Part shown: in pieces, positions 15,755 through 15,797 of the stretch
Layout of the letters: each line of letters starts with the position of its first letter
How positions within the stretch are numbered: position 1 is the stretch's first letter
Assembly: GCF_016903815.1 (NCBI RefSeq)
Contig: NZ_CP069973.1
Direction: 5' to 3' (one strand)
DNA from: Escherichia coli
GTDB taxonomy: Bacteria; Pseudomonadota; Gammaproteobacteria; Enterobacterales; Enterobacteriaceae
DNA: 64,000 nucleotides
Position numbers and translations under genes: made by a program
The notes under the pieces: model-generated
What the model saw: only the letters and a program-made list of their open reading frames with translations
The model's database searches: none
What the model was told of the DNA's origin: nothing

Positions 15755-15797
15755 GGTGACAGTTATATGTAAGGTTTATGACAGTTTTATGACAGAG
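15755..15797 (-). promoter_or_regulatory. PhoB binding sites (Pho boxes) of the pstS promoter
   Basis: on the minus strand: CTGTCATAAAACTGTCATAAACCTTACATATAACTGTCACCTG, tandem CTGTCAT direct repeats. Confidence 0.8.

Follow-up and report, generated by a model that had tools for sequence, protein, structure and literature searches.

Tandem Pho boxes of the pstS promoter in an Escherichia coli chromosomal segment

The 43-mer CTGTCATAAAACTGTCATAAACCTTACATATAACTGTCACCTG, which occurs once in the 64,000-nucleotide stretch of DNA analysed here (the window), on the minus strand at 15753-15795, is almost certainly the PhoB-dependent promoter of the pstSCAB-phoU operon in E. coli. The observation is confirmed as real, intact and ordinary; it is the textbook pstS promoter, already known, and serves as a positive control for the scan, which picks up a classical activator-dependent promoter. 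The strain's operon for high-affinity phosphate uptake and signalling keeps a normal control region. The sole part of the locus able to add knowledge is a conserved block of half-sites upstream of the core boxes, together with its presence/absence polymorphism, which is a modest lead. The features of the locus are collected in Table 1; the anatomy of the promoter, its weight-matrix (PWM) scores, its conservation and the identity of its repeats to those of K-12 were all computed for the window.

Table 1. Features of the glmS-pstS-phoU locus, in order along the minus strand, and one inverted Pho box from another E. coli genome
Feature	Position	Strand	Description
glmS, upstream neighbour	16003-17832	-	annotation of the identical strain 7/2
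glmS intrinsic terminator	15972-15997	-	11-bp stem, then T run
Conserved block of about 70 bp (U1, part of U2, inverted pair)	15860-15930	-	cross-genus, by per-base identity
Inverted half-site pair, TGTGACA AAC CGTCATC	15913-15929	-	in other genera ATGACAAACTGTCAT
TGTCACA half-site, inverted	15923-15929	+	
CGTCATC half-site	15913-15919	-	
CTGTCAC half-site	15890-15896	-	
U1, TGTCACA GAAT GAAAATT	15878-15895	-	8.8 bits; first half-site strong, second weak; 101 bp upstream of box 1
CTGTCAT half-site	15868-15874	-	22 bp from CTGTCAC, in the sense of the core boxes
U2, TGTCATC TCTT CGTTATT	15856-15873	-	7.5 bits; 22 bp after U1, 79 bp upstream of box 1
IHF-core-like TAATTAACTGAAT	15835-15847	-	offset -53, between U2 and box 1; 2 mismatches to YAANNNNTTGATW
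Pho box 1 (distal), CTGTCAT AAAA CTGTCAT	15778-15795	-	0 mismatches to consensus; PWM register TGTCATAAAACTGTCATA
Box 1, PWM register	15777-15794	-	23.3 bits; rank 1; per-position exact P 3e-11
Inter-box spacer, 4 bp, AAAC	15774-15777	-	ATTC in K-12 (K-12 comparison)
Overlapping middle register	15766-15783	-	14.8 bits; rank 5; per-position exact P 4.9e-6
Pho box 2 (promoter-proximal), CTTACAT ATAA CTGTCAC	15756-15773	-	identical to K-12
Box 2, PWM register	15755-15772	-	15.6 bits; rank 3; per-position exact P 2.6e-6
Fifth in-phase pseudo-repeat, TTGTCCT	15745-15751	-	conserved sequence; adjoins the -10 hexamer
-10 hexamer, TATTTT	15740-15745	-	sequence reading; 10 bp after CTGTCAC (15756-15762)
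Shine-Dalgarno of pstS, AGGAG	15694-15698	-	sequence reading; kept in at least 90% of 38 Enterobacteriaceae
pstS	14649-15689, ATG 15689	-	346 aa; NF008171 end to end, 746.6 bits; annotated as pstS in strain 7/2
pstC	13604-14563	-	full-length NCBIfam equivalog, above curated cut-off
pstA	12714-13604	-	full-length NCBIfam equivalog, above curated cut-off
pstB	11850-12623	-	full-length NCBIfam equivalog, above curated cut-off
phoU	11110-11835	-	full-length NCBIfam equivalog, above curated cut-off
Inverted Pho box, E. coli CFSAN061769	8227-8244 of locus L003	-	PWM 18.7 bits

Repeat structure of the core Pho boxes

Read in the sense of pstS, the promoter is CTGTCAT-AAAA-CTGTCAT-AAAC-CTTACAT-ATAA-CTGTCAC, and its four 7-bp repeats start at 15795, 15784, 15773 and 15762, in exact steps of 11 bp. 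The initial annotation had proposed tandem Pho boxes with direct CTGTCAT repeats upstream of pstS, and these are found as four repeats of 11-bp period that form two boxes, 64-106 nt before the ATG and in the same orientation as the gene; the sequence that it gave is correct, and its position, 15755-15797, is displaced by 2 nt. Tandem Repeats Finder reports an array of 11-bp period at 15757-15795 (3.5 copies, score 50). Both boxes have the structure by which a Pho box is defined, two CTGTCAT-like 7-bp direct repeats that are separated by a 4-bp A/T-rich spacer and follow an 11-bp period.

A tandem repeat that arose by chance or by slippage and has no regulatory role could in principle give a similar picture, and over the whole window the heptamer CTGTCAY is indeed not in excess, with 17 copies against 12.7 +/- 4.0 expected. 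Such an origin is nevertheless hardly conceivable, given that five of the 17 copies fall inside 141 bp (15756-15896), every one of them on the pstS-sense strand and spaced in multiples of 11 bp, and given the weight-matrix score, the K-12 occupancy and the conservation described in the following sections. The paired pattern CTGTCAYN4CTGTCAY, allowing up to two mismatches, has five matches against 0.89 expected, and four of these are overlapping in-phase registers at the core boxes. The 43-mer is present in none of the shuffles of the window.

Weight-matrix scan

The PhoB log-odds matrix was built from 58 sites of 18 bp identified by ChIP-seq in K-12, with the pstS site excluded (PMC10294691, Table 1). 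Box 1 is the top of about 128,000 positions in the window and scores above all 58 sites of the matrix (6.7-21.3 bits, median about 15). In 200 dinucleotide-preserving shuffles the window maximum averages 14.7 +/- 1.4 bits and reaches 19.4 bits at most, so that the score of box 1 is never attained, which argues against a chance repeat. Box 2 lies exactly 22 bp downstream of box 1, the one in-phase position. The scan with a PhoB weight matrix that had been proposed as a check was thus run and passed, and the low scores that would have spoken against Pho boxes were not seen. The second-ranking match in the window is the K-12 'rbsK' ChIP site, itself a member of the training set. Further matches at 2976, 6596, 8135 and 8213 (12-13.5 bits) were set aside as chance level, about 1.7 matches being expected at 13.4 bits or more.

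Comparison with the K-12 promoter

The pstS promoter of E. coli K-12 was reportedly described by Makino in 1988 and by Kimura in 1989, with two tandem Pho boxes and a -10 region. The glmS-pstS intergenic region of MG1655 differs from that of the window at seven of 313 positions (306/313 identical), and inside the 43-mer the only two differences both fall in the spacer between the boxes. The K-12 pstS (phoS) promoter has the same four 7-bp repeats, -10 hexamer, 5' UTR and Shine-Dalgarno sequence, and its spacer reads ATTC where the window has AAAC, a common natural allele; we infer that the spacer differences are functionally neutral. Among 5426 complete E. coli genomes, the window allele of the 43-mer is carried by 1965 (36%), the exact K-12 allele by about 1601 and variants with one mismatch to the K-12 allele by about 1480. 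One plasmid record also matches the 43-mer and the upstream block, and a chromosomal fragment or an assembly artefact is possible there.

In K-12 the region upstream of pstS is the most enriched of the PhoB ChIP-seq regions, with a score of 38 and the motif TGTCATAAAACTGTCATA, and it is the sole region bound by PhoB at high phosphate (PMC10294691). Deletion of phoB in K-12 lowers pstS RNA from 239,097 to 310, about 770-fold, and the occupancy of the pstS promoter by sigma-70 depends on PhoB (PMC10294691). The K-12 peak has its centre at 3911600, 75 bp before the ATG (3911525), and this centre corresponds to about position 15764 of the window, within box 2. By analogy with K-12, the window's promoter would be expected to be occupied by PhoB, to depend on it and to recruit polymerase. 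That the identical K-12 site gives the top ChIP-seq peak (PMC10294691) also argues against a repeat without regulatory role.

It is very unlikely that the repeats chiefly serve another regulator of the OmpR/PhoB family, such as CreB or TorR. The members of this family all use direct repeats of about 11-bp period, and cross-binding is compatible with the sequence, but a matrix derived from PhoB ChIP-seq sites only has its peak at these boxes, and the roughly 770-fold loss of pstS RNA in the K-12 phoB deletion points to PhoB itself.

The structural definition of the Pho box (Blanco 2002) comprises two 11-bp direct repeats, with TGTCA read in the major groove and A/T-rich tracts in the minor groove (PMC4447250, PMC4415409). 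The window agrees with it in the exact 11-bp period, in the TGTCA core of three of its four repeats and in spacers that are A/T-rich throughout, and departs from it in the third repeat, CTTACAT, which is degenerate in K-12 as well.

Promoter elements and proposed activation

In the -10 region, at least 90% of 38 Enterobacteriaceae sequences keep CCTATTTTGC. The last repeat of box 2 occupies the -35 position, and a consensus scan of 15600-16100 finds no sigma-70 -35/-10 consensus pair, which is how an activator-dependent promoter would look. The predicted transcription start is near 15733, some 43 nt before the ATG of pstS.

Under phosphate limitation, PhoR would phosphorylate PhoB, and dimers of PhoB~P would occupy each box in head-to-tail arrangement, as known from work on K-12 and from the structure (PMC4447250, PMC4415409). 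PhoB~P would then recruit sigma-70 RNA polymerase to a promoter that has no -35 element (K-12, PMC10294691), the promoter-proximal repeat, 10 bp upstream of TATTTT, standing in for it. The phoBR genes are located beyond the 64-kb window.

Past box 2, the phase of the array continues into a fifth pseudo-repeat, and TGTCCTATTTTGC is kept there by at least 90% of the 38 Enterobacteriaceae sequences. The corresponding matrix register, 15744-15761, scores 9.3 bits in the window and 14.4 bits, as TGTCACCAAACTGTCCTA, in many genera. PhoB~P bound there at high concentration could occlude the -10 hexamer.

Conservation of the core among species

One genome per species was scanned with a degenerate pattern for a 15-residue PstS peptide, which returned 120 loci; sufficient upstream DNA was available for 69 loci of Enterobacterales and for 44 of alpha- and beta-proteobacteria and unclassified MAGs. 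A box of at least 20 bits is present in 63 of the 69 Enterobacterales loci, and an in-phase second box 22 bp downstream in 65; the same counts in the group of 44 are three and three, and a site of 14 bits or more is present in 25 of these 44 loci. In the alignment of 38 upstream regions from Enterobacteriaceae, the boxes are near-invariant, being conserved in at least 90% of the sequences, and likewise the conservation of the pstS Pho box extends across 29 gammaproteobacteria (PMC10294691). The retention of sequence, position and phase in 65/69 Enterobacterales loci is a further point against a chance or slippage repeat.

Gene order and integrity of the pst-phoU locus

The window is 100% identical to E. 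coli strain 7/2 across the compared stretches. The minus strand carries, in order, glmU, glmS, an intergenic region of 313 bp, and then pstS, pstC, pstA, pstB and phoU; the glmS-pstS spacer has the same length as in K-12 and contains no Tn7-like insertion. The initial annotation took the Pho boxes as showing that the pst-phoU locus is intact. The locus is in fact intact, because PstS, PstC, PstA, PstB and PhoU each span an NCBIfam equivalog with scores above the curated cut-off; boxes by themselves are no proof of intactness. To our knowledge, PhoB and PhoR are universal in E. coli.

Upstream block

The TGTCAC/TGACAG-like repeats that had been noticed around 15880-15930 are present as half-sites, and as dimers they reach only 7.5-8.8 bits with the PhoB matrix in this strain. 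Scores of the level of U1 and U2 (8.8 and 7.5 bits) lie at the bottom of the bound range, and about 22-40 chance matches of this level are expected per window. The status of these repeats as PhoB sites is argued from cross-genus conservation, not from the PWM. The 200 bp on the upstream side of the core hold three strong half-sites, of at least 8.8 bits, where 0.17 are expected from shuffles; about 4 in 10,000 shuffles reach three. U1 and box 1 share the flank TCTCTGTCA, at a spacing of 101 bp.

Most of the block 15860-15930 has 80-100% per-base identity to 12 other genera, the level of the core promoter, and its flanks have 0-50%. The 12 genera include Citrobacter, Salmonella, Enterobacter, Leclercia, Pluralibacter, Pseudocitrobacter, Siccibacter, Kluyvera, Kosakonia and Pseudenterobacter. 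At the aligned positions of U1 and U2, other genera score 10-15 bits, and between 20 and 200 bp above box 1 the only offsets at which matches of at least 10 bits occur in six or more of the 38 Enterobacteriaceae sequences are -101 (21/38) and -79 (12/38). The spacing of 101 bp is retained despite poorly conserved intervening sequence. U2 has its strong half-site second in other genera (for example TGAAATCTTAGTGTCATA) and first in the window allele, which suggests turnover of half-sites within one 18-bp site, under selection for recognition of the PhoB type. An inverted repeat ATGACA-N3-TGTCAT is found at -133/-134 in about 20 of the 38 sequences.

The half-sites at 15856-15929 are, on this sequence evidence, most likely auxiliary low-affinity PhoB sites, which would modulate the promoter and be non-essential. 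The upstream cluster would bind additional PhoB at higher levels of PhoB~P and modulate the pstS promoter rather than enable it. The centre of the K-12 ChIP-seq peak is on the core boxes, not on the upstream cluster.

A rather unlikely alternative is that the block 15860-15930 is kept for a reason unrelated to PhoB, such as another DNA-binding protein, A-tract curvature or an unrecognised transcript, the half-sites in it being incidental. Bases outside the PhoB registers (CATCTTC-GCTAC-TTTT) are conserved equally to the half-sites, the pair at 15913-15929 is inverted, which is unusual for PhoB, and is placed 24 bp from U1 rather than 22, and the dimer scores in E. coli are weak, all of which would fit a function of this kind. 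Against it stand the excess of strong half-sites, the shared orientation of U1 and U2 with the core boxes and their 22-bp distance, the recurrence of matches of at least 10 bits across genera at -101 and -79 only, and the 11-bp displacement of the strong U2 half-site inside what remains one 18-bp site. A transcript or promoter in the block also finds little in the sequence, as no Rfam family, no promoter-like site and only one small ORF are found, the latter broken by a 1-nt indel between genera.

Several candidates for such other functions were rejected. The small ORF, 15854-15928, would encode 24 aa from a GTG (ATG elsewhere) and has no Shine-Dalgarno sequence, and the indel between genera shifts its frame. 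A search for RNA families in 15500-16200 (Rfam) gave two chance-level matches only, with E of about 0.8. A promoter of the PhoB type after U2, for which TAATAT at 11-bp spacing was read by eye in E. coli, is not conserved in other genera. A CRP site at TGTGACAAACCGTCAT was discarded by eye, its right half differing from TCACA.

The IHF-core-like sequence between U2 and box 1 is a lead only for a possible IHF-type site. The IHF core consensus WATCAANNNNTTR has no exact match in the glmS-pstS intergenic region of the window according to the scan, which also ruled out TATCAACGCTTAT as an exact consensus. The exact IHF consensus is present at the aligned position in seven of the 38 relatives, and two exact matches occur across the 64-kb window.

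The promoter of phoE reportedly has an upstream inverted Pho box that is needed for full expression (Tommassen, 1987), and the inverted pair upstream of the pstS core resembles this distal box. With this precedent at phoE, the upstream sites of pstS, even if real, belong to a known type of arrangement. Multiple Pho boxes are also found at ugpB (PMC4415409) and two sites at phoB (PMC10294691). The pstS locus shares the extra sites of the PhoB type with these multi-site Pho promoters (phoE, ugpB and phoB), and its sites are weak in E. coli, missing from the lpf alleles and known from sequence. An upstream PhoB site of pstS is not described in PMC10294691 and PMC3465305, which give box 1 or the two boxes only. 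A full-text literature search for the upstream sequences returned a cloning paper only, the classical promoter papers (Kimura 1989, Taschner 2006) being outside its scope.

Alleles of the glmS-pstS spacer

The block of the K-12 and window type is carried by 3065 of 5426 complete E. coli genomes. In 1479 of the 5426 genomes, glmS and pstS are separated by the lpfO113 fimbrial operon, and the block of the window is missing from them. In the one such genome examined, that of E. coli CFSAN061769, the sequence becomes homologous to the window again only some 8 bp before box 1, which is there TGTCATAAAAATGTCATA and scores 22.2 bits; the spacer between lpfD and pstS contains an inverted Pho box, 56 bp upstream of box 1, with a per-position P of 1.4e-7.

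The lpf2 operon is located between glmS and pstS in O157:H7 (PMC12750587). In O157:H7 Sakai it occupies the same place, with box 1 being TGTCATCAAACTGTCACA at 21.7 bits, and none of the 15-mers of the upstream block are found in the 50-kb Sakai locus. At low phosphate, pstS of O157:H7 EDL933 is induced 47-fold, with a PhoB dependence of 15.7-fold (PMC3978041).

The block is missing from lpf-bearing E. coli and is therefore probably dispensable, the induction of pstS in EDL933 being indirect evidence in the same direction. In the alleles with lpf islands, homology restarts at box 1 or at most about 8 bp upstream of it, and box 1 is therefore the upstream edge of the conserved and probably indispensable unit. 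A fuller reading of the block, drawn from sequence comparison and tentative enough that the balance leans somewhat against it, is a distal PhoB module composed of two weak in-phase boxes and the inverted pair, kept at a constant distance of 101 bp from box 1 across genera of Enterobacteriaceae, with a possible IHF bend in between, which would serve to adjust the level of induction or its threshold. This module would be polymorphic in E. coli, with about 56% of genomes carrying it and the others having it replaced by lpf islands, one replacement allele with an inverted box of its own of 18.7 bits. The natural alleles offer a way to ask if the phosphate response at the regulon's strongest promoter is influenced, in sensitivity or timing, by distal PhoB sites.

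The glmS-pstS spacer is a hot spot with at least four alleles in E. coli, namely the K-12/window type, two island types (lpfO113 and O157 lpf2) and a shorter E. albertii-like type. It is also the region in which Tn7 classically attaches, directly downstream of glmS.

Other features of the window

Between yieH and phoU, at 3815-10684, the window has an island with espY4, similar to type III secretion effectors (T3SS), a pentapeptide-repeat gene similar to espX3, and a gene for a hypothetical protein of 794 aa, similar to espY5, whose 5' fragment is frameshifted. The island recurs in O157:H7 Sakai, where espX3 and espY5 are pseudogenes. At the position of this island K-12 presumably carries the bgl operon.

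The PhoB site that ChIP-seq in K-12 assigned to rbsK (TGTCACCATCAGGTCATA) lies at 42054-42084, between rbsB and rbsK, and is overlapped by a match of 15.2 bits on the opposite strand (42067-42084); in K-12, the expression of rbsK has no PhoB-dependent change (PMC10294691). An IS200C transposase gene lies at 37528-37986, between kup and rbsD, and is missing from that place in O157:H7 Sakai. The intergenic region between mnmG (gidA) and mioC, the site of E. coli oriC, is also inside the window, at about 29796-30173.
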